Positions 16,020-27,144 of a stretch of 64,000 bases of DNA are shown here, piece after piece (position 1 is the first letter of the stretch; each line of letters starts with the position of its first letter). The position numbers and the translations under genes are program-made. The notes under the pieces are model-generated. The model was given only the letters and a program-made list of their open reading frames with translations. It was not told the DNA's origin and made no database searches. The stretch spans positions 23,815 through 87,814 of the IMG/VR virus record IMGVR_UViG_3300033571_015173. One strand, written 5' to 3'. The stretch is from a virus.

Positions 16020-19000
16020 ATGGCTCTAGTTTTTGACCCCAGTACTGGTGGGTATTCAGTTGCGGGCCACCCTCGCAGTTTGTATCCAAGAAAGAATATT
16101 CTGACCAGCCAGGGCTGGGACCAGATGGCTCTATCGGATTACGAGCCCATTATTGACCCGACAACGGGTGAGCCTATCCGGGACCACTACGGAAACCCCC
16201 AATACAAGCAGGTTAGAGACACAGGAACTGCTATCACGGGTCGGTTTCCAGTGGTGGGAAGCTCCTATGCGACAGATGAATATGCCAATTTAAGCCGCAG
16301 TCCTGGTTTCTTGTCTGACCTGTGGAGAAAATTACAAGGGGCTAGCTCGGGCATTGGATCGGAGCTGAAGGCAGATCTCTATGGTCCCCCAGTCAAATCA
16401 GCCCCTCCAGCATGGCCAATTGATCTTGGCATCGGAGGACAACCAGCAACAATGGCTGATTATTTCGCAGCACTTAAGGCGCAAGATCAACCTATTCCTT
16501 TCGCCGGTGGGGGAATGGTTGACAAGCTAGAAGCGCTGAAGGCACAAGAAGTGTCTGGTGTTACTGCGAAAATGAAAAAGATTGAAGATGTCAAAAACCT
16601 AGAAGCAAGAGTTAAGGCGGCAAAAGCGGCTCTTCAGGACAACCTTAAGCAGGCATATTACCGTAAAGTTCTGGAGCAAAGATTCCCAGGTATCAAACTA
16701 GATGGAGTTCCATTAAATACCGGATGGGATATAGAAAAGGCTCTGGGTTTACCTGCTGAACAGTTAGTAGGTATGACTAAAGAGACTGGTCTAAGATCTG
16801 CCCTTTCTGAGGCTTTAAGACTAAGAAATCTTGCCCCTGCCGAACCCGGTAAACTGTCTGATCAAGTTCTTGATCCTCGCCTTAAAGCTTTAATTGAAGC
16901 TGAAAACATCCCACGAATGGATGCTGCAGGCAACGATCCAAGTAGAGCGGATCTTGCTTTGCTTCTAGAGCATGGAATAGCAGATGAAGAGGATCTACTG
17001 GCATTTCCAAAGGCTCGGGCTGCATGGAAAAGAATGAAGGCGAAACAAGCGGAAGATATTGAATTCAATAAACGGCTTGCAGCTCAAGGTGGTGTAGTAG
17101 AAGATCCAAGACTTTTTGATAATCCACATACGGTATATGGTCCAGGAGGACCTATACCCGTAGCTCCCAGAGAAATTGAACAAATTCCGCAATGGTTACA
17201 TGATGCAGCACACCCAAAACCTACTGCTGATCAAGTAGGCGATGCCAAGGAAGTAGTTAGAGAACAGCAAGAATATAACCGGGATATTAGAAGACTGCTT
17301 GCTGGTTCGGCCAAGATGGAAGGTTGGGATCCTGTATCTGCTCCTTACCATGTAGTTCAACAAAGACTAACGGGTGCTAAGAAAGGAGATAAATTTCCGG
17401 GTGGAGTTGTCTACAATCCTGAGCATTTACAAGGGATTTTAGACAATCGTGCGATTATTGCAGCACATGCTCTCAATGTGCCAGAACGCAGATTTACTCC
17501 TCACATGCCAGTTTTAGACTGGTGGATGAATCCCAGGACTCAAGAGAGTAATTTTCAGAATCCAGATTGGCAGAACGATTATCCCAGGAATATCACACTT
17601 CCTGACGGAAGAATTGTCCAGACTGCTTATACAGGAGAAGAAGTTCTAGCCGATATTAATCGGCAAATTGCTTCCCCGTATGGATTTGAAAAGGCAGGTG
17701 TTCGGGACTTAACCCCTGGACAAATGCAAGCTATCTATGACCAGAAGAATCCACTAGAAACTGCTGAATTAGAGCTTAAGCAACATGCCTATGATTCCCA
17801 AATGGGAATTAAGAATGCTGGTCTTCAAGCTTATGGCATTCGAGATCCTGAACTGGCGTTAAGAGAGGGAGGTTATATTCCTAGCCTCAAGCATTACGCC
17901 AAGAAGGATAAGTCTGGGAGATACATTAACTCCTACCGGACTAATGTTGAGGCTAGGAACGCAGCCAAAAATAACATTCTGTTCAATCAAGCCTTGCTTG
18001 ATACTGAGATTGGAAGGACTATCCAACCTTTCTGGGCAGAACGGAATCAGATGCTGAAGGTCGATGCGAATAGACCGGAATGGTGGGGGAACACTTTATC
18101 TCAGTCTGGAACGAACTACGATTACGCCATCCGCCCAACCCCTATCGATGTCGAGAAGCAGAAAGCTACCAGACAGCTCTTCGATCTTTACAGATATGGA
18201 GGCCAGGGGCAGACAGCTTATCACGATCCTTTGGGTGTCTACAATAAAGCTGGAGGCCGTCCTGCATTTTCTAGTACTGGTCTGCTTAAGCCTGGTTCTA
18301 GCGTTCTTGATGCTAGTACTTATAGTTTAGGTTCTGACAGGCTAGGAGTTGCATACCCTCAGTCTGCATTTTCTAGCGCTGGTCTTGCTAATGCAGTAGA
18401 AACTGTTCCCTCAACATGGGCTCCAGACGGTCGGTATACTCCAACCGATCCTGCATGGATGGGGCTGGAATCTTATCGTCCATCGCGAGCTATTAGAACT
18501 CAAGCTCCTTCGATTCTTGATCAGTTTCAGGGAATGACTCGGATAAAGGATCAATTATCCAGGGCTCCTGGTCCTATTGCTCCTGTTGTATTACAACAAC
18601 TTCTACCTGAAGTACGTCAAGGTCCTGCATCAACTTTAATTCCAGGTAGAGCTCTTGCCGAACTTGGAATTAATCGTGTTACTGCTCGGAATACTGAAGA
18701 TCCTTGGGCTGTAGTTAGAAGAGCTGGGAAGTATAAGCGTACTCCTTTCCCTCTTGGGGCGGAAGATCTTTCTACTCCTGCTACTCGCGCCTATGCAGAG
18801 AATGCCATGTTCCAAAGCACTAAGCCTTTTTATCCATCTGTCATGGATAGGAGTGCTAAGTCTTTGCTACCCCAGCTTCGACCTTTAGAGTCTGGTAGAG
18901 AAGCCTATCTCAGACTTCAAGAAAAGAATGCTGATGATATTGCAAGATATGGTGTTGCTACTTCTCCTATGTTTAATGCACAGGAGTATGTTGACAGCCA

Positions 19001-20777
19001 TTACGGTGGCTTTCGTCCAGAAGAGAAAGCTGCAATCGCAGCATCGATGAATGAGTCGGCACTTGATGCAACTCTCGGTGATAGTGCGAGTAAGGCTCAG
19101 AGAATGGCTCGTAATTTGGGCGATGCTCTTGGCCTTCAAGCTCGGGCTGACATCGGTTGGGACCCAGCATTGAAAACCTGGCAAGGAGTTCAAGGTAAGA
19201 AAGTTTACGATGTCGGATCTACTCAGAGAGCACAACTAAGAATACAAGGTTTGCAGGAGGAGCTTGCAGATCCAGCTAATCAACTGCAACGAAAGTTGTC
19301 TCCCCAGTTTGATAGCATGATGAGACAAAAAGAGGAGACAATTGCAAGCTTAGGAGCTTTTATCGCTCCCAAGACTGCTCTTCCTCCTTATTCTTCGGTT
19401 CCTGCTAATCGTCCAGTTCTGAGACAGATGTTTGCGGAGGCTGCTAATACTGGAATTGGCCCAGAGTTTAGACAGTTTGATGCTAGAGGCTTAGATCAAC
19501 AGCAGAAAGTTAGTGAATTACTTGATGTTGTTATTGCTAACGAAGAGTTAAAGACAGGAAGACCAACTTTGATTCCTCCAGTCGAGCCTATTCGGATGCT
19601 GGAAGAATCAGAAAGGTTGCCTTGGCAAAGTACTAAGAAAATGTGGACTTCGGGATCTAATGCCAGAGGTTTGAGCTCCGTTCAACCGAAGTTAGCATCT
19701 CATCTTATGGAGAAGGGTCTGCCAGGTATCTTAGCCCTAGCTTACGATACTAAGCAACCAGTCTTCCAAACCCCGTCTCTAGCTTTTGGAGATCGTGGGA
19801 TCAAGTTAGCTGGAGAGAGAGATGCTCTTATTTCCCCGGAGGATGTAACAGAACTCTATCGTGAGACTCTACCTGAGGGTCATGCAAAATATGAAGGCAT
19901 GAATTGGAGAAGTGGAGCTCCCGTCCAGTTCGAGCCTGCAGGTCGCTATAGCGCACCAAATGAGCGGGATCTTATTGTTCCTGAGAAAATGATGGTTGCA
20001 GAACGCGATCCTCAAATTCAAAAGGCTAGAGATTATCTAACTGCTCATGGTAGACGCTGGACCTTTGGGGAGGAAAGCCCTAGAGAAGCCGGTGTTATTG
20101 GCAAGATGCAAGCTGGTAATCTGGGTGCTCTAGAGATGGTTGAAGAAGCGAAGAATCTCAATATCCAAGACTCGATGCTTCGTAGCCTGCATGGTGGGAG
20201 TTATGGATTTACTCCATCCCCACTCTTAAAGCAATTTGTTTCAGATAATCAATCTGAAATACAAGCGGCTAATGAAAGAAGACAAGCTCGTAAACAGGAA
20301 GCTATTATTTCTGCTGCACAACCTGAGAAGTTTGGAGTTGTTACTCCTGCTTTCTCCGATGACTATCTTGGCAGCAGGCTCACTGGGAAGAGCACGGCAA
20401 CCAGTCAAATCTTAAATGATGCGCTAGAGGCGCAAAGAACTACCGTGGCAAAAATCGAAAGACCTGATTTCTATATTGATCCCGGAGAGACAAGACAGAT
20501 TGGATTTGTTGATCAAGAAAGGAACTTTGTTGAACCGGGTAGAACCAATCTAGAGATGGCGCAAGTCCAAGAAGTTCGAGAACCAAGAGTAAGATTAACT
20601 TCTCCATCTGATCCTAGCGATTTAAGAGCTAGGGCTGCCGCACTACTTGAGAAGAAAGCAGCGAGATCTCAGTCAACCTATCAACCTGATTTAGGTCGGG
20701 ATGTCCGCATTCAAAGACCAACAACTGATGTAGCTGAAGATCTCCTGTCTACCATTCGCCGCACTTATCGGCGATAA
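16020..20777 (+). CDS. very large (1585 aa) hypothetical protein, possibly an internal virion/ejection protein
   Basis: long uninterrupted ORF followed by a terminator; no recognisable catalytic motif. Confidence 0.75.
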   Translation: MALVFDPSTGGYSVAGHPRSLYPRKNILTSQGWDQMALSDYEPIIDPTTGEPIRDHYGNPQYKQVRDTGTAITGRFPVVGSSYATDEYANLSRSPGFLSDLWRKLQGASSGIGSELKADLYGPPVKSAPPAWPIDLGIGGQPATMADYFAALKAQDQPIPFAGGGMVDKLEALKAQEVSGVTAKMKKIEDVKNLEARVKAAKAALQDNLKQAYYRKVLEQRFPGIKLDGVPLNTGWDIEKALGLPAEQLVGMTKETGLRSALSEALRLRNLAPAEPGKLSDQVLDPRLKALIEAENIPRMDAAGNDPSRADLALLLEHGIADEEDLLAFPKARAAWKRMKAKQAEDIEFNKRLAAQGGVVEDPRLFDNPHTVYGPGGPIPVAPREIEQIPQWLHDAAHPKPTADQVGDAKEVVREQQEYNRDIRRLLAGSAKMEGWDPVSAPYHVVQQRLTGAKKGDKFPGGVVYNPEHLQGILDNRAIIAAHALNVPERRFTPHMPVLDWWMNPRTQESNFQNPDWQNDYPRNITLPDGRIVQTAYTGEEVLADINRQIASPYGFEKAGVRDLTPGQMQAIYDQKNPLETAELELKQHAYDSQMGIKNAGLQAYGIRDPELALREGGYIPSLKHYAKKDKSGRYINSYRTNVEARNAAKNNILFNQALLDTEIGRTIQPFWAERNQMLKVDANRPEWWGNTLSQSGTNYDYAIRPTPIDVEKQKATRQLFDLYRYGGQGQTAYHDPLGVYNKAGGRPAFSSTGLLKPGSSVLDASTYSLGSDRLGVAYPQSAFSSAGLANAVETVPSTWAPDGRYTPTDPAWMGLESYRPSRAIRTQAPSILDQFQGMTRIKDQLSRAPGPIAPVVLQQLLPEVRQGPASTLIPGRALAELGINRVTARNTEDPWAVVRRAGKYKRTPFPLGAEDLSTPATRAYAENAMFQSTKPFYPSVMDRSAKSLLPQLRPLESGREAYLRLQEKNADDIARYGVATSPMFNAQEYVDSHYGGFRPEEKAAIAASMNESALDATLGDSASKAQRMARNLGDALGLQARADIGWDPALKTWQGVQGKKVYDVGSTQRAQLRIQGLQEELADPANQLQRKLSPQFDSMMRQKEETIASLGAFIAPKTALPPYSSVPANRPVLRQMFAEAANTGIGPEFRQFDARGLDQQQKVSELLDVVIANEELKTGRPTLIPPVEPIRMLEESERLPWQSTKKMWTSGSNARGLSSVQPKLASHLMEKGLPGILALAYDTKQPVFQTPSLAFGDRGIKLAGERDALISPEDVTELYRETLPEGHAKYEGMNWRSGAPVQFEPAGRYSAPNERDLIVPEKMMVAERDPQIQKARDYLTAHGRRWTFGEESPREAGVIGKMQAGNLGALEMVEEAKNLNIQDSMLRSLHGGSYGFTPSPLLKQFVSDNQSEIQAANERRQARKQEAIISAAQPEKFGVVTPAFSDDYLGSRLTGKSTATSQILNDALEAQRTTVAKIERPDFYIDPGETRQIGFVDQERNFVEPGRTNLEMAQVQEVREPRVRLTSPSDPSDLRARAAALLEKKAARSQSTYQPDLGRDVRIQRPTTDVAEDLLSTIRRTYRR

Positions 20778-21437: not shown

Positions 21438-21813
21438 ATCAGCAGAAGACCTCAAGAAGTTCAAACGTCAACCCAAGTTCAGCGAGCATCGATTGATTAC
21501 CGTACCAGTTGCAGATAGCGATCTCCTCTTTGATGCCGAAACAAGACCTCCATACATTTTTTATATTGAAGGTCGAGCTTGGTTTCATATTCTAGGTTTC
21601 AGCTTTCCTGGGTTTTGGACAGGAAGAATTAGCCTGGTAGATGCTACTCATGCTTTTAAGATCTTGGAGATTCTTTCAGCTCAACCCGCACAGAAGAGAT
21701 TTTATCTTTTGGGTGGAGCTCTCTTACACAACTATGGTAGTCGTAAAGTCTATCAACTTTGGGTAGGTAATCTAGACAGTTGTGACGAATTAAGGGTGGT
21801 GACCTATAAATGA
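21424..21813 (+). CDS. hypothetical protein
   Basis: SD GGAG; overlapping ORF chain. Confidence 0.6.
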   Translation: MEKLKSAEDLKKFKRQPKFSEHRLITVPVADSDLLFDAETRPPYIFYIEGRAWFHILGFSFPGFWTGRISLVDATHAFKILEILSAQPAQKRFYLLGGALLHNYGSRKVYQLWVGNLDSCDELRVVTYK

Positions 21814-22070
21814 AGAAAAGAATTCAGACAGTATTAGGGAGCACTCCAGTTAAGGTGACTGTGATAGCCAGCGACAAGAGAAGTACTAGCTATTTCATTT
21901 GCACCCTAGAACAATTCCAAGAGGCTAAACCTACCATCATAGATGGGCTGACAACAGTTGTAACCGAGGATGTAGCCACATACTTCGGACAAGAAGTCCT
22001 TAACCTAGCCTATAGAATGCAAGCTGGGGAGGTGATTTCTTTTTTGGCTGAATTAGTCCAGGAGATCTAG
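21810..22070 (+). CDS. hypothetical protein
   Basis: ATGA coupling. Confidence 0.55.
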   Translation: MKKRIQTVLGSTPVKVTVIASDKRSTSYFICTLEQFQEAKPTIIDGLTTVVTEDVATYFGQEVLNLAYRMQAGEVISFLAELVQEI

Positions 22071-22075
22071 CATCT

Positions 22076-22099
22076 CCAATCCAGGGGCAAGTATCTTCG
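22076..22099 (+). promoter_or_regulatory. conserved phage motif copy 6 (upstream of Gp157 and the module array)
   Basis: CCAATCCAGGGGCAAGTATCTTCG, 31 nt before ATG 22131. Confidence 0.55.
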
Positions 22100-22130
22100 A
22101 TCTAAACCTAGAAAAACAGGAGCTAAAAGT

Positions 22131-22664
22131 ATGAGCAGTTTATTCGAGATTTCCGATGCAATTCTTCATCTGAATGACCAGCTGGATAATCTGGATGACG
22201 AAGATCTAGATGATGAGGCTCTTGCAACTATTCAAGAGTTTTTGGCAGGACTTCTTAAGGAAACAATTAATCAGCGGGACCATAAGCTGGATAATTATGG
22301 AGCTCTTATCAGAGAAATCAAACTCCGAGCTAGTGTTAGAAAGCAAGAGGCTGAAAGGTTGATTAAGCTTTCAAGATTCGATGAGAATAGAGCTAATCGG
22401 CTTGAAGAGTGCTTGTTCAAGTTCCTGGCTGCTCACAATCTGAAGAAGCTCGATACTACCAGATTCCGATTTTCTGTTTGTGTCAATGGTGGAAAGCTTC
22501 CCCTGGTACTCGATGAAGAACTAGAACCAGATGACTTCCCAGAAGAGTACACTTATCCAGTGACGGTAGTAGACAAAGTGGCTATTCGAGAAGCATTAGA
22601 AGCAGGGAAAGAACTTACCTTTGCTAAACTTGGTGAACGAGGATCCCACTTAAGGATCAGATGA
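22131..22664 (+). CDS. Siphovirus Gp157 family protein
   Basis: MSSLFEIS start, KLDNY...I, coiled coil, DKVAIREALEAG...HLRIR end. Confidence 0.8.
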   Translation: MSSLFEISDAILHLNDQLDNLDDEDLDDEALATIQEFLAGLLKETINQRDHKLDNYGALIREIKLRASVRKQEAERLIKLSRFDENRANRLEECLFKFLAAHNLKKLDTTRFRFSVCVNGGKLPLVLDEELEPDDFPEEYTYPVTVVDKVAIREALEAGKELTFAKLGERGSHLRIR

Positions 22665-22819
22665 AACTAGAGGTTCAAAGGTTGCGCGGCGGATCCTGGC
22701 ATTTTAAGTCCTGGTTCTGCCGCTCTGCATATCATGGCTGCTTCATTAAAAGCGTTCCAACTAGTGATGTTGGTTTTCGGATTCTAATTAGGAGGCGAAA
22801 TGGAAAGCTTTATCAGTAA
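22661..22819 (+). CDS. CLec/FGE variable module 1 (52 aa)
   Basis: [52 protein letters not shown]; ATGA overlap with Gp157. Confidence 0.75.
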   Translation: MKLEVQRLRGGSWHFKSWFCRSAYHGCFIKSVPTSDVGFRILIRRRNGKLYQ

Positions 22820-22958
22820 AATTGTGCGTGGTGCTTCCTGGGCGTGCAATCTCACTATTTCCTACTCGGCTTTTCGTGAAGAGGTTGGTCCAGTAGCTAG
22901 AGATGATTCTATTGGTTTTCGGATTGCAATCAAGGAGAAAAATGAAAAGACCTGTTAG
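22800..22958 (+). CDS. CLec/FGE variable module 2 (52 aa)
   Basis: [52 protein letters not shown]; SD GGAGG. Confidence 0.75.
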   Translation: MESFISKIVRGASWACNLTISYSAFREEVGPVARDDSIGFRIAIKEKNEKTC

Positions 22959-23097
22959 GATGATGTTGCGTAGTAACCCCTGGAGTATTTGCCTCTGGGG
23001 TCGCTCGGCTTGTCGGCTTGACAACGATCCCAATAATTATGATCCTGATATCGGTTTTCGAGTTGTGATTGGGAGGAGAAATGAAAAGACCAGTTAG
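22942..23097 (+). CDS. CLec/FGE variable module 3
   Basis: [51 protein letters not shown]; SD AGGAG. Confidence 0.75.
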
Positions 23098-23242
23098 TAG
23101 ATGGCCTTTGTTACGTGGTGGTTCCTGGCATTTCAATCCCGATAACTGCCGCTCGGCGTACCGTAGCGGAAACAATACCCTCTATCGGTTTAATAATGCC
23201 GGTTTTCGGATTGTCAAGGAGGGAAATGAAAAGACTAATTAG
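23081..23242 (+). CDS. CLec/FGE variable module 4 (53 aa)
   Basis: [53 protein letters not shown]; SD GGAGG. Confidence 0.8.
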
Positions 23243-23378
23243 GAAGCTGTCTTTGTTACGTGGCGGTTCCTGGAGTCTTGAGACTAATTTTTGCCGTCCC
23301 GCGTTTCGTGGTGGAGACTATTCCGATTACCAGGATAATGACATTGGTTTTCGAGTTGTGATTGGAGGCAAAAAATGA
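23226..23378 (+). CDS. CLec/FGE variable module 5
   Basis: [50 protein letters not shown]; SD AGGAGG. Confidence 0.8.
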
Positions 23379-23536
23379 AAAAGTTTATCAGTAAAGCAAT
23401 CCGCAGCGGTTCTTGGTATAGCTATGCTGATTCTAGCCGAACGGCTTATCACGATCTGCAGGATGTCTGGAATCGGAATAACTATATTGGTTTTCGGATT
23501 GTAGTTGCAAAGAAAAAGAATGAAAAAGCAATCTGA
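23375..23536 (+). CDS. CLec/FGE variable module 6 (53 aa)
   Basis: [53 protein letters not shown]; SD GGAGG, ATGA overlap. Confidence 0.75.
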   Translation: MKKFISKAIRSGSWYSYADSSRTAYHDLQDVWNRNNYIGFRIVVAKKKNEKAI

Positions 23537-23690
23537 ATTCCATAAGATATTGCGTGGTGGTTCTTACCTTTTTGATCCTGAATACTGCCGGTCTGCATAT
23601 TGGTATGTTGGCCGCCTTGTATATCGTGATCACCACTACGGTTTTCGGATTGTTATTGGAGGAGCAAGCCATGAAAAGCAGAAGCTTTAA
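23520..23690 (+). CDS. CLec/FGE variable module 7
   Basis: MKKQSEFHKILRGGSYLFDPEYCRSAYWYVGRLVYRDHHYGFRIVIGGASHEKQKL. Confidence 0.75.
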   Translation: MKKQSEFHKILRGGSYLFDPEYCRSAYWYVGRLVYRDHHYGFRIVIGGASHEKQKL

Positions 23691-23871
23691 GAGTCCTATT
23701 CTTCGTGGCAACTCTTGGCTGAATAACGCAAAGAATTCCCGTTCAGCTTGTCGTACTTGGTATGACGCTACACTTGCACTTAATAACTTTAGTTTTCGAG
23801 TTGTTGTTAGAGGAGTGAGCCGTGAAAACATGGAAGACAGCGAGGGGCAGCGCTTGGAACAGCAGACCTAG
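23671..23871 (+). CDS. CLec/FGE variable module 8
   Basis: MKSRSFKSPILRGNSWLNNAKNSRSACRTWYDATLALNNFSFRVVV...; SD GGAGG. Confidence 0.75.
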   Translation: MKSRSFKSPILRGNSWLNNAKNSRSACRTWYDATLALNNFSFRVVVRGVSRENMEDSEGQRLEQQT

Positions 23872-23959
23872 GAAGTGCCGTTCGGCTTCCCGAGAAAATG
23901 ATGCCCCTGATCAAGATAATTACTGTTATGGCTTTCGAGTTGTGATCAATAAACCATGA
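23822..23959 (+). CDS. CLec/FGE variable module 9 (45 aa, GTG start)
   Basis: MKTWKTARGSAWNSRPRKCRSASRENDAPDQDNYCYGFRVVINKP; SD GAGGAG. Confidence 0.7.
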   Translation: MKTWKTARGSAWNSRPRKCRSASRENDAPDQDNYCYGFRVVINKP

Positions 23960-24093
23960 GTCAGAAAATAGCGCGTGGTAATTCCTGGTTTGGAAATCGT
24001 ACTTACTCTAGATCAGCCTCCCGCAATGTTAGCATCCCCAGGTATGATGAAGATATTTTTGGCTTTCGTATTGTGATCAAAGATAAACCATGA
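23956..24093 (+). CDS. CLec/FGE variable module 10 (45 aa)
   Basis: MSQKIARGNSWFGNRTYSRSASRNVSIPRYDEDIFGFRIVIKDKP; ATGA overlap. Confidence 0.75.
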   Translation: MSQKIARGNSWFGNRTYSRSASRNVSIPRYDEDIFGFRIVIKDKP

Positions 24094-24350
24094 GTCAGAA
24101 AATAGCGCGTGGTAATTCCTGGTTTGGAAATCGTACTTACTCTAGATCGGCCTTCCGCAATGTTAGGACCCACAGATATGATGGGGAGATTTTTTTTGGC
24201 TTTCGGATTGTAATGAAGAAAAACCATAAAGTAAAGACAATGCGTGGTGGATGCTCGGGCAACGACATAGAATATTGTCGCTCTGCATCTCGTACTATGA
24301 GCGGATCACACAATGCCAGTTTGATTATCGGCCTTCGAGTTGTGAAATGA
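24090..24350 (+). CDS. CLec/FGE variable modules 11+12 fused in frame (internal ATG 24213)
   Basis: two RG..S-x6-.RSA-x14/15-G[FL]R units in one 86-aa ORF. Confidence 0.75.
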   Translation: MSQKIARGNSWFGNRTYSRSAFRNVRTHRYDGEIFFGFRIVMKKNHKVKTMRGGCSGNDIEYCRSASRTMSGSHNASLIIGLRVVK

Positions 24351-24493
24351 AAAACGAAAAAGAAAAATCAATCCGCAGCGGATCCTGGGTTGCTAATGAC
24401 GATCTCTGCCGCTCACCCTTTCGTTCAAGAGAATCTAACAAGTACTGGGACAACTACATTGGATTCAGGATTCTTATCAAGAAAAAGCCATGA
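24347..24493 (+). CDS. CLec/FGE variable module 13
   Basis: MKNEKEKSIRSGSWVANDDLCRSPFRSRESNKYWDNYIGFRILIKKKP; ATGA overlap. Confidence 0.75.
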   Translation: MKNEKEKSIRSGSWVANDDLCRSPFRSRESNKYWDNYIGFRILIKKKP

Positions 24494-24648
24494 GGTACAA
24501 AAAGAAGATACTAAGAGGTGGAGGTGGGACTATTATTCCCAAGTACTGTCGGTCAGCCTATCGAGTCAACCATTATCTTCCTTACAGCTTTGAGCGATTC
24601 TTTGGATTTCGGATTGTTGTTAGAGGGACAGGAAGTGAAGGAACTTAA
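24490..24648 (+). CDS. CLec/FGE variable module 14 (52 aa)
   Basis: MRYKKKILRGGGGTIIPKYCRSAYRVNHYLPYSFERFFGFRIVVRGTGSEGT; ATGA overlap. Confidence 0.75.
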   Translation: MRYKKKILRGGGGTIIPKYCRSAYRVNHYLPYSFERFFGFRIVVRGTGSEGT

Positions 24649-24790
24649 GTCTATACGTGGTGGTTCTTGGGGTGATTATTCAGCGTTCTGTCGGTCGGCT
24701 GTTCGGAATGACTATCACTCCAACAATGACCATGATAACCGTGGCTTTCGGATTGTAGTTAGAGAGTACAAGAATGGAAGAGCAAATTAA
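24635..24790 (+). CDS. CLec/FGE variable module 15 (GTG start)
   Basis: MKELKSIRGGSWGDYSAFCRSAVRNDYHSNNDHDNRGFRIVVREYKNGRAN. Confidence 0.75.
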   Translation: MKELKSIRGGSWGDYSAFCRSAVRNDYHSNNDHDNRGFRIVVREYKNGRAN

Positions 24791-25511
24791 GTACAAGTCT
24801 CAGCGTGGTGGGTCGTACTATAACTTTCCCTGGCCCTATCGTTCGAGTTACCGCATTAGGAGTAACTCCAAAGATGCTGATTCTCTTCTCGGTTTTCGGA
24901 TTGTAATCATTGTTCATTTATTCGTGAGAACAACTATGCCTGAGTTTCAAATTGAGATGGTGAATATTCCTGCTGGAGAATACGTGATGGGTTCTCCAGA
25001 CAATGAACCTGGTCGCTTCTCTGATGAAGAGCAACACCTGGTTAAGCTTGAGGGTTTCAGGATGAGTAAGAATCTAATTACTCAGAAAGAGTGGAGGTTT
25101 GTTGCCAGCTTGCCACAAATAGATATTCCACTGAAACCTAGCCCCTCCTATTTTACGGGGGACGATCTGCCGGTGGAATCTGTTAATTGGTATGAAGCAA
25201 TCGAGTTCTGCAAGCGTCTTTCAATTTACCTGAATGAGGAGGTAACTTTACCCTCTGAAGCTCAGTGGGAGTATGCTTGCAGAGCAGGAACCACTACTGC
25301 CTACTACACTGGAGAGACATTGGATCTGACGGAGGCGAACTTCTGGGCTGAAGGAAGTCCGAAGAAGACCACCCCGGTAGGAACTTATCCTCCGAATGCC
25401 TGGGGACTGCATGACATGCACGGCAATCTGTGGGAATGGTGCCTAGATGATTGGCATGATACCTATGAAGGTGCTCCCACTGATGGCAGTGCCTGGATTG
25501 ATCCAGAGTAG
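24774..25511 (+). CDS. circularly permuted FGE-sulfatase (SUMF1/CLec-fold) protein: module 16 fused N-terminally to a core lacking its own C-terminal RGGSW...GFR segment (possible internal start 24936)
   Basis: EMVNIPAGEYVMGS, PVESVNW, LPSEAQWEYACRAG, PNAWGLHDMHGNLWEWC and GAPTDGSAW, then a stop codon. Confidence 0.9.
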   Translation: MEEQIKYKSQRGGSYYNFPWPYRSSYRIRSNSKDADSLLGFRIVIIVHLFVRTTMPEFQIEMVNIPAGEYVMGSPDNEPGRFSDEEQHLVKLEGFRMSKNLITQKEWRFVASLPQIDIPLKPSPSYFTGDDLPVESVNWYEAIEFCKRLSIYLNEEVTLPSEAQWEYACRAGTTTAYYTGETLDLTEANFWAEGSPKKTTPVGTYPPNAWGLHDMHGNLWEWCLDDWHDTYEGAPTDGSAWIDPE

Positions 25512-25679
25512 TACATCGAATATCACATAGTCGGTTGGGCAGGGGGTTAAGACTCCACTAGTGGTCCCTTCCCTATTGGCAGCTAGTTTACTAGTTCTGG
25601 AATAAGTCCAATATGCTATCCGACGAATAACACAGTAGCCTACATGAATAGAAGCTACTGTGTTATTTCTAGTGTTAAA

Positions 25680-25753
25680 AAAGAACCTCTCAAAGAAAGA
25701 CCTCTCAAAGAAGACCCTCCTAAAGAAAGACCTCTCAAAGAAAGACCTCTCAA
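25680..25753 (+). repeat. ~15-bp tandem repeat AAAGAAAGACCTCTC (about 5 imperfect copies)
   Basis: direct reading. Confidence 0.8.
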
Positions 25754-25756
25754 CCT

Positions 25757-26173
25757 ATGTCACATTTTGATGATTTACGATATTTCGCAAAGAGATTCAG
25801 TGACGAATGGACCAAAGAATTTGACAAAAAATTTGACAAGGAGGATGAACTCCAACCCCCTGTAAAGCCAATGTCGTATTACGATGAGCTACGAACTTAT
25901 TTGAGCACACCTAATGAGGAGAACAAAATGGCTAGCGAGAAAAAAGATATTATCTTGGCGGAAAAGATCTATCGGGCGGATTACAGACCTGATGATCCGT
26001 CTAAGTATTCCCGGTTTAATTTAAGTGATGTTCTGCTTTATCGAAGTATTTCAGAAAACCTTGAGAATGAAATCGAGTCTATCGTTAAGCCTGGAGTCAG
26101 TTTGGTTAAGGTCCAGTTCGCGATTACGATTCTTGAGCACATCCCACCAGAGCCAAAAGAAGAAAATTTCTGA
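25757..26173 (+). CDS. hypothetical protein
   Basis: ORF track. Confidence 0.5.
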   Translation: MSHFDDLRYFAKRFSDEWTKEFDKKFDKEDELQPPVKPMSYYDELRTYLSTPNEENKMASEKKDIILAEKIYRADYRPDDPSKYSRFNLSDVLLYRSISENLENEIESIVKPGVSLVKVQFAITILEHIPPEPKEENF

Positions 26174-26298
26174 ATAATCGCTCAACATAAGATAAGGTGA
26201 GGGGGTACATTGCTATCCCCCACTTTATTTTCGTTTGAAAGTGTATTGCGTTTTTTTTCGTGTCATGCTACAATTTTTGTAAATTTGGAGGTTTTATC

Positions 26299-27144
26299 AT
26301 GTCAATTCAGACTGAAAGTGCAACTTTGATGTTGCCGGGATGCTTCCAGCGTACCATTCCTTACCTGGAAACCCTGCCTGAAGTAGAGGAGACTTCGACC
26401 TATCATCCTTTGACCCATATCCAGTTGATCACGCTGATCGAATCAAAGATTCAAACCCTGGATGGTTATGAACTGGTTCCGTATACCTGGAATGCTCCTA
26501 TCGAGGAGTTAAAACCAGAGGACCAGGTGAATGAAGAAGGTGTAAATCGTTTTAAGACTATTACTCAGGACTTTGCAATCGGGACGAATCGAGCAGGGAC
26601 TACATTATTTGGCATTGCTCAACTGCGGGCTACCAACGCTCAGAACCCTCACCAGCATTTGGCGGTAGGGTTTCGTAACTCGACCAACAAGCAATTCGCG
26701 GTCGGGTTTACTTGCGGAGTCAAGACTTTAATTTGCAGCAATCTCTGCATGTCTGGTGACTTTGTTGGGTATGCCAAGCACGTCCACAAGGTTGATTGGA
26801 ATGACTTGATCGATCAAGCATTCGAGGCTGTTCCCCTTCGGTATGCAGATCTGACTGAAAAGATTGAGGGCTTGCGCGAGAAGAAGTTTACTGATTTTGA
26901 CTCCGCAAAAGCCTTTACTCTGGATGGAGTACTCAACAAAGCTATTCCTCCCAATATGGTGCAGGATGTCTGGAAGTACTATATTGAGCCGACTCATGAA
27001 GAGTTTGCCTCTGATGGTTGGACTCAATACCGTCTCTTACAAGCACTGACGGAAGCCTACAAGAAGGAGAACTCAGTGTCTCAGTACTTACAGCAAACCA
27101 TTTCCATGAACCGAATGTTCGGGTTTATGCCCAAAGAAATGTGA
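26299..27144 (+). CDS. DUF932-like protein
   Basis: GFRNS...G...LICSNL and H motifs; SD GGAGG. Confidence 0.65.
   Translation: MSIQTESATLMLPGCFQRTIPYLETLPEVEETSTYHPLTHIQLITLIESKIQTLDGYELVPYTWNAPIEELKPEDQVNEEGVNRFKTITQDFAIGTNRAGTTLFGIAQLRATNAQNPHQHLAVGFRNSTNKQFAVGFTCGVKTLICSNLCMSGDFVGYAKHVHKVDWNDLIDQAFEAVPLRYADLTEKIEGLREKKFTDFDSAKAFTLDGVLNKAIPPNMVQDVWKYYIEPTHEEFASDGWTQYRLLQALTEAYKKENSVSQYLQQTISMNRMFGFMPKEM

Follow-up and report, generated by a model that had tools for sequence, protein, structure and literature searches.

The CLec/FGE fold (CLec, C-type lectin) is a standard scaffold for the massive protein variation that retroelements produce, and to our knowledge its variable region has always been described at the C-terminus of one polypeptide. 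Here we analyse a phage locus that has a different order, which lies in a 64,000-nucleotide stretch (hereafter the window) corresponding to bases 23815-87814 of the virus record IMGVR_UViG_3300033571_015173, a complete 87.8-kb genome with direct terminal repeats and a GC content of 43.6%. The locus contains an open reading frame (ORF) of 245 amino acids (aa) in which one variable segment, module 16, precedes a constant core, and fifteen further modules lie upstream of it. Its closest described counterparts are the variable proteins of diversity-generating retroelements (DGRs) that have the FGE-type CLec fold (TvpA of Treponema denticola, structure 2Y3C, and cyanobacterial targets): they belong to the same Pfam family and have the same fold, the same RGGSW..CRSAxR..GFR framework and the same NNY-rich loops, but their variable segment is C-terminal, whereas that of the phage is N-terminal and 16 modules accompany one core, modules 1-15 as separate ORFs.

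Catalytic FGE carries its cysteine pair, CxxxxC, in the C-terminal segment. The phage modules have at most one cysteine, that of CRSAxR, and module 16 has none there (YRSSYR), so the phage proteins are more likely binders than FGE enzymes. Likenesses in design can be found further afield. In the engineered circular permutants known as "alternate frame folding", a terminal segment is duplicated on the other end and two mutually exclusive folds compete; relatives of the phage protein with modules at both ends, or with several leading modules, are laid out in the same way, and the window ORF represents the pure permuted frame. Unlike the engineered proteins, the phage versions are natural, and their duplicated segments differ in the ligand-binding loops. 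Cassette systems that swap a C-terminal specificity part, such as the R64 shufflon (PilV) and the tail-fibre segments of Mu Gin and P1 Cin, likewise set a constant part side by side with alternative specificity ends; in contrast, the phage array has no invertase or inverted repeats, and all its modules precede the constant part on the same strand, each having a start and a stop of its own. In protein fragment complementation (RNase S, strand 11 of split GFP, lacZ alpha) a short peptide completes an incomplete fold, as is predicted here, but the phage case would be natural and would offer 15 alternative peptides to one acceptor. A full-text search of the literature returned no description of permuted or split FGE/CLec domains, and none of arrays of modules or of frameshifting in proteins targeted by DGRs; such arrays are also absent from a preprint on DGRs in multicellular bacteria. 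What is already known, then, is the fold and its use for variation; what is new is the permutation, the multiplicity and the splitting.

The permuted domain and its relatives

The ORF (24774..25511, + strand, ATG start) reads MEEQIKYKSQ-RGGSYYNFPWPYRSSYRIRSNSKDADSLLGFRIV-IIVHLFVRTT-MPEFQIEMVNIPAG..., and its C-terminal end is DGSAWIDPE followed by the stop. As a whole it matches the Pfam family FGE-sulfatase (PF03781) with E 7e-42 and 144 bits, against a gathering cut-off of 23.3, and its core alone covers positions 4-208 of the 255 of the profile (E 1.5e-38). Collinearity with the profile nevertheless fails: a six-frame search of the genome places module 16 (24762-24905 in the window) at positions 204-254 and the core at 4-210, both in one open frame of 250 codons, so that 204-254 precedes 4-210 as in a permuted member of the family. 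This bears out the claim of an earlier note, made from the sequence alone, that module 16, the linker and the core form one frame in reversed order. The core terminates exactly where the canonical C-terminal variable segment would begin, and its junction with module 16 is the sole open one, all 15 other module junctions bearing stops.

To place this arrangement among related proteins we examined the 120 best hits in a protein collection, coding architectures with M for module and C for core. One in six (20/120), mostly from viral contigs, has one to four in-frame modules ahead of the core: 13 with a truncated core (MC, MMC, MMMC, MMMMC) and 7 with a complete one (MCM). Bare truncated cores with no module in the ORF account for five more hits (P0044, P0048, P0057, P0061, P0107). 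The viral-contig cores with the same arrangement are 51-62% identical; the loci include L001 and L002, in which two modules and a linker of 12 residues precede a core ending in DGSAWLDGDAK, L031 and L033, with four and three modules respectively, a 10-residue linker and a core ending in DGSAWEGGDE, and L005, with one module ahead of the core. In a quick maximum-likelihood tree of the cores, well-supported branches divide the proteins with N-terminal modules into at least four separate groups. The window core groups with P0040 (MC), its closest AT-rich permuted relative, and with P0004/P0005 (MMC), at an SH-aLRT of 89, and the stop-free in-frame junction is found in both AT-rich and GC-rich lineages. 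The earlier suggestion that a variable-region-first arrangement is natural can therefore be extended: it is also recurrent.

Because the same in-frame arrangement recurs in related loci, we judge the reversed order of the 245-aa ORF to be genuine and not an accidental read-through. As far as sequences can tell, the ORF is a natural circular permutant of the FGE-sulfatase-type CLec fold: the elements of the parent fold are there, with termini relocated and joined by a linker, at the level of sequence and otherwise by prediction. Most members of its family, in which one core goes with several alternative variable modules, are borne by phages, and databases label them plainly as "FGE family protein". 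The closest sequence relatives are cyanobacterial; among the best 80 of more than 600 matches in cellular genomes, almost all of them from cyanobacteria, we found no module array, all being canonical or multi-domain proteins, and the arrays look like a viral speciality.

Relatives also have their modules in other positions. On another viral contig, at L312:3384-4351, an ORF for a truncated core (ending in YEGS) is followed, after 2 nt, by a separate two-module ORF starting MALQAKLLRGGSW, an independent case of a split gene, and at least five clusters (P0137-P0141) comprise proteins of about 100 aa that consist of modules only. Modules located downstream of the core and out of its frame are all in the -1 frame. 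Such modules occur at L005:6552-7522 and L008:6555-6810, as well as in L015, L018, L024, L026, L027 and L086; in L005 five of these units follow each other in series before a final in-frame module. An in-phase slippery heptamer stands 12 or 24 nt before RGGSW in 15 of the 21 distinct out-of-frame cases (14 G_GGA_AAG, 1 A_AAA_AAG); in those 15 a stop comes 2-6 codons after GFRV, and up to 10 codons after it in one of the six that have no heptamer. A few nt past the heptamer, every GC-rich module can form a hairpin of at least 7 bp in which RGG (GCGGCGG) pairs with CRS (CUGCCGC), as at L008:6568-6605 and equivalent places, with modest z-scores versus shuffled sequences (-0.03 to -2.6). The pattern looks like serial programmed -1 frameshifting, which would give the core one of several endings. 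Altogether, the relatives show one core served by many variable modules through cis permutation, tandem fusion and split genes, and probably through frameshifting.

Predicted structure

AlphaFold2, run on an alignment of 68 rows, gave a compact model of the 245-aa ORF, with a predicted TM-score (pTM) of 0.85 and a mean local confidence (pLDDT) of 83.6, in keeping with the earlier proposal that a variable-region-first permutant could fold. The successive blocks of module 16 have pLDDT values of 75, 60, 72, 85 and 82, and its predicted strands (7-12, 26-31, 39-45) fall in the strand places of the canonical domain. When the model was compared with canonical structures of this type (Foldseek/VIA-align), it matched PvdO (5HHA; Z 16.4, root-mean-square deviation 3.0, 191 residues aligned), TvpA (2Y3C; Z 14.5) and human FGE/SUMF1 (1Y1E; Z 12.6), the fold being alike over ~176-191 residues in PvdO and FGE and the phage order permuted. 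All three structures align collinearly to model residues ~48-245 only and leave their own last ~45 residues unmatched (human FGE, for example, is covered at 86-324). An alignment limited to ~48-245 is what permutation predicts.

The prediction of a complex between the 191-aa core and the free peptide of module 4 yielded an interface score (ipSAE) of 0.97, versus 0.06 for the best of three controls; 58 of 80 solved complexes and 2 of 110 mismatched pairs attain this mark, and the pass may stem from resemblance to solved single-chain FGE folds. The complex runs share at least 96% of their contacts with a partner pLDDT of at least 81, and 41 of the 53 residues of the peptide lie in the predicted interface. 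The pLDDT of the core itself drops from 94-95 beside the module to 60-78 beside unrelated partners, which is consistent with the module being integral to the fold. One detail of the earlier note is not what the prediction shows, namely that the GFR strand would lie against the EMVNIP strand: the predicted contacts of the GFRIV strand are with core residues 41-48, 88-92, 105-106 and 165-168, and EMVNIP, the first core strand, touches the module via I6 and M8 only. One interface still takes in both the module's end and the core's start, so that 10-15 residues are enough to join them and the existing linker is long enough.

The array of free modules and its variation

Modules 1-15 occupy 22661-24790 in changing frames, as 14 separate small ORFs (modules 11 and 12 share one), and complete with module 16 the 16 copies of the repeat M-(K)-x5-9-RGGSW-x6-CRSAxR-x12-14-GFR(I/V)V (table 1). 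A loose form of the module pattern has 12 matches in the 64 kb, all of them within the array. Fourteen modules start with ATG and two with GTG; strong Shine-Dalgarno (SD) sequences stand ahead of modules 2-6, 8 and 9, and ATGA stop/start overlaps are found at six junctions, including that with the upstream Gam-like gene, the TGA of which overlaps the ATG of module 1. In Pfam terms a free module such as module 14 corresponds to positions 213-254 of FGE-sulfatase. Pairwise identity among modules is only 29-44%, several have degenerate frameworks (RSNPW, RGGGG, RGGCS), and in nucleotide composition the array does not differ from the genome. The framework residues persist through synonymous codons (four for R12, five for R24, four for A26, four for R45): pooled over all module pairs, the proportions of synonymous and nonsynonymous differences (pS and pN) are 0.60 and 0.18, with a dN/dS of 0.18, a value that points to selection at the protein level and not to recent copying. 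We take the mini-ORFs to be translationally coupled in one operon and kept under such selection. No other array of separate mini-ORFs of this size was found in the loci surveyed (78 viral, 80 from metagenomes and 80 from genomes).

Table 1. Features of the locus (window coordinates)
Feature	Position	Strand	Remarks
Sipho_Gp157 / Mu Gam-like gene	22131..22664	+	PHROG 253 E 2e-24; Pfam PF05565 E 1.1e-29; upstream of array
Module 1 mini-ORF, 52 aa	22661..22819	+	RGGSW..CRSAYH..GFRIL
Module 2 mini-ORF, 52 aa	22800..22958	+	SD AGGAGG; near-identical sister-strain ORF P0148
Module 3 mini-ORF, 51 aa	22942..23097	+	SD AAGGAG
Module 4 mini-ORF, 53 aa	23081..23242	+	SD GGGAGG; peptide taken for complex prediction
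Module 5 mini-ORF, 50 aa	23226..23378	+	SD AAGGAGGG
Module 6 mini-ORF, 53 aa	23375..23536	+	SD GGAGG; ATGA overlap with module 5; sister-strain ORF P0146
Module 7 mini-ORF, 56 aa	23520..23690	+	
Module 8 mini-ORF, 66 aa	23671..23871	+	SD GGAGGAG
Module 9 mini-ORF, 45 aa	23822..23959	+	GTG start; SD GAGGAG; sister-strain ORF P0162
Module 10 mini-ORF, 45 aa	23956..24093	+	ATGA overlap; recent duplicate of module 11 (period 134, 2.2 copies)
Modules 11 and 12 in one ORF, 86 aa	24090..24350	+	ATGA overlap; P0136
Module 13 mini-ORF, 48 aa	24347..24493	+	ATGA overlap
Module 14 mini-ORF, 52 aa	24490..24648	+	ATGA overlap; FGE-sulfatase 213-254
Module 15 mini-ORF, 51 aa from GTG 24635	24635..24790	+	longer frame opens at GTG 24518; P0157
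Module 16, N-terminal part of 245-aa ORF	24774..24905	+	FGE-sulfatase 204-254
Linker IIVHLFVRTT (10 residues), module 16 to core	24906..24935	+	pLDDT 70-82
Constant core	24936..25511	+	FGE-sulfatase 4-208; ends just before RGGSW segment; internal ATG 24936
Perfect 14-bp inverted repeat after core	25626..25666	+	possible operon end; without T run, hence no terminator call

In the variable loops of the modules (window 22686-24906), 261 of 321 codons are NNY (81%), against 52% in the other genes of the phage (p 1e-27), and N, D, Y, S and F abound among the encoded residues. This codon pattern is the footprint of past DGR adenine mutagenesis, which for the window is historical only. The reverse transcriptase domain RVT_1 has no match in the phage genome, complete at 87.8 kb, or in 10 viral records related to it, at least 98% complete in five cases. 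Template-like module DNA outside the arrays was absent from the five related viral records searched for it; in the phage's own genome, where no dedicated DNA template search was made, FGE-sulfatase matches and, within the 64-kb window, the module pattern occur only at the locus. Of the features of a DGR system, the locus thus shows the adenine footprint, with neither reverse transcriptase nor template repeat found. Because the loops bear this footprint while the phage is without a reverse transcriptase, the diversity appears, from these sequence features, to be hard-wired as a germline library and not freshly generated; the differences among modules in length and in synonymous framework sites also mean that no single template wrote them recently. 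A different history is implied for the lineages of L031 and L033, in which the retroelement would act from elsewhere, presumably the host: all 29 differences between L031:5737-5990 and L033:5734-5985, in two module bodies, are at codon positions 1-2 with identical flanks, a signature of adenine mutagenesis, and neither record (100% and 81% complete, respectively) has a reverse transcriptase or template copy.

Recent changes can be followed in a sister strain, ~97% identical and found by the same study in a different sample. It retains the array, and gene callers call the same small ORFs in it (P0148, P0146, P0162, P0136). Its modules are almost unchanged, in a genome that differs by ~3% elsewhere, and the single-nucleotide polymorphisms (SNPs) shown between the strains for module 1 affect third codon positions. 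Module 3, however, has had its body swapped (P0167; a diverged patch of 66 nt at 22987-23052, of equal length) with leader and tail kept, and a 137-nt deletion joins 24055 to 24193, fusing modules 10 and 11. Likewise, L033 is without one whole module of L031, the junction lying within the GFRV block. Deletion or recombination of modules, as the earlier note envisaged, does take place, but no event was found that had put another module in the slot next to the core: contigs, which cannot show rare forms, contain no joint of another module to the linker, and the longest exact sequence that the GFR block of module 16 has in common with other modules is 15 nt. The note had further invoked circularised DNA or RNA as a way of restoring the canonical order. 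We dropped this route, as the contigs of four runs (again blind to rare forms) hold no joint of the core end to a module, no intron, ribozyme or other Rfam match was found in 21500-26500, and the relatives make it unnecessary.

Explanations, setting and significance

How could fifteen free modules serve a core whose slot may already be filled by a sixteenth? With a probability of roughly 60%, we consider the 245-aa protein to be a CLec binder that folds in permuted order, and the remaining modules to be produced by the operon as well, as peptides able to complete a module-less core. Module 16 is fused in cis, and the fused product would fold as a permuted domain, while the free peptides would complete in trans a core that is module-less, either one initiated at ATG 24936 or one reached by exchange; alternatively, free modules would become fused in cis after recombination between the conserved GFR blocks. 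One early operon would then give rise to a collection of binders, none of them enzymes, that differ in their binding surface. Observations that bear on a possible split domain completed in trans are the separate ORFs with SD and ATG, the selection on the framework, the predicted complex (0.97 vs 0.06) and the split gene of L312. A bolder form of this reading, which we advance only tentatively, has the core completed interchangeably by 16 germline segments, one in cis and 15 in trans as ~50-aa peptides, producing polyclonal binders without DNA rearrangement or retroelement; relatives would arrive at the same end via tandem in-frame modules, as a natural form of alternate frame folding, via split genes and via serial -1 frameshifting at a G_GGA_AAG site ahead of each downstream module. 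More speculatively, the free peptides might occupy the slot of nascent host CLec sensors diversified by DGRs, thereby blinding them.

Several observations count against this interpretation. Its weak point is the one raised above: should module 16 fill the slot in cis, the free peptides have no obvious free core. The methionine at 24936 is not conserved among relatives, and ATG 24936 and ATG 24774 have equally weak SD-like sequences, neither context being better. Module 16 deviates from the framework (RGGSY, YRSSYR), dips to pLDDT 60 in one block, and is placed in cis on the strength of AlphaFold2 confidence values. For a three-module relative (P0039), AlphaFold2 left all three modules at pLDDT 32-52, and the relatives with modules at both ends (P0002, P0022 and others) indicate that a module at the N-terminus does not in every case supply the missing piece.

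The modules might instead matter mainly as DNA. Modules 1-15 would then be a reservoir in which recombination between the conserved GFR blocks removes the modules in between and attaches another one, complete with SD and ATG, to the linker and core, giving each phage population rare variants whose binding surface is new. Whole modules are indeed gained or lost in nature, as the 137-nt deletion and the comparison of L033 with L031 attest, the body of module 3 has been replaced in the sister strain, and Gam-like and exonuclease genes flank the array. We regard this explanation as unlikely all the same, since a mere 15 nt of exact sequence is common to the GFR block of module 16 and the others, deletion works one way only, the observed deletion between near-identical recent duplicates is ordinary unequal recombination, and no contig has another module on the linker, though contigs miss rare forms. 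It is rather improbable, too, that the read-through is incidental, with module 16 the last free module, its stop lost, a 191-aa core initiated at ATG 24936 (or at the Met of MVNIP) the functional product, and the modules acting in trans or not at all. Gene callers do annotate a core-only protein of 182 aa (P0133) on the L001 contig, module-less truncated cores exist among the hits, and the SD-like sequence is weak at both candidate starts; yet the stop-free junction recurs in at least four clades, AT-rich as well as GC-rich, stops are present at all 15 other junctions in a phage of 43.6% GC, and linker and module are modelled at pLDDT 70-85.

Other alternatives concern the mutagenesis that left its mark on the loops. 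A host-encoded DGR could still be rewriting the modules in trans during infection or lysogeny, the array being a landing pad with multiple targets. The 29 of 29 differences at codon positions 1-2 between L031 and L033 would fit such activity, as would the absence of RVT_1 from 10 related records, that of a template-like copy outside the arrays from the five searched for one, and the NNY bias of the window loops; for the window itself we deem it very unlikely, because its modules differ in synonymous framework sites, length and 3' ends, which makes a single template impossible, and the SNPs shown for module 1 are at third codon positions. Least credible is that the modules are functionless relics of DGR variable regions, decaying after loss of the retroelement and still open because NNY codons cannot become stops in one step. 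The genome without RVT_1, the degenerate frameworks and the share of NNY codons would all agree with decay, but not the framework dN/dS of 0.18 at a pS of 0.60, the start codons and SD sites retained on all units, the near constancy of the modules in a strain ~3% different elsewhere, or an array composition equal to that of the genome.

Along the + strand, the run of 16 repeats has the Gam-like gene on one side and unknown genes, an exonuclease and a primase on the other. Promoter and terminator scans did not exceed what shuffled sequences gave, no terminator was called on the + strand within the array, and the related loci contain no homologue of any of 11 window proteins encoded nearby. Just upstream of the region, an ORF of 1585 aa (16020-20777) is without any PHROG or Pfam match. 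Between the inverted repeat and the next gene (ATG 25757) lies a 15-nt tandem repeat, AAAGACCTCTCAAAG, in 4.9 copies (25680-25753), which may represent protein-binding sites. In the window and in the two related loci checked, L002 and L031, the genes sit in early, replication or recombination regions and not among tail genes, a position that makes an intracellular target likelier than a host receptor.

These findings call for a change of annotation, as gene callers now return "FGE family protein", truncated fragments or hypothetical ORFs of 50 aa. A tolerant binding scaffold that nature offers in permuted and split form would also be useful in protein engineering, for instance as split binders or switchable folds. 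For the biology of the phage, the locus suggests a binder diversity that is free of retroelements, in the form of a hard-wired library of modules on one core, and its placement in an early operon points to an intracellular role, possibly in the conflict between phages and cyanobacteria, the hypervariable sensors of which use the same fold.

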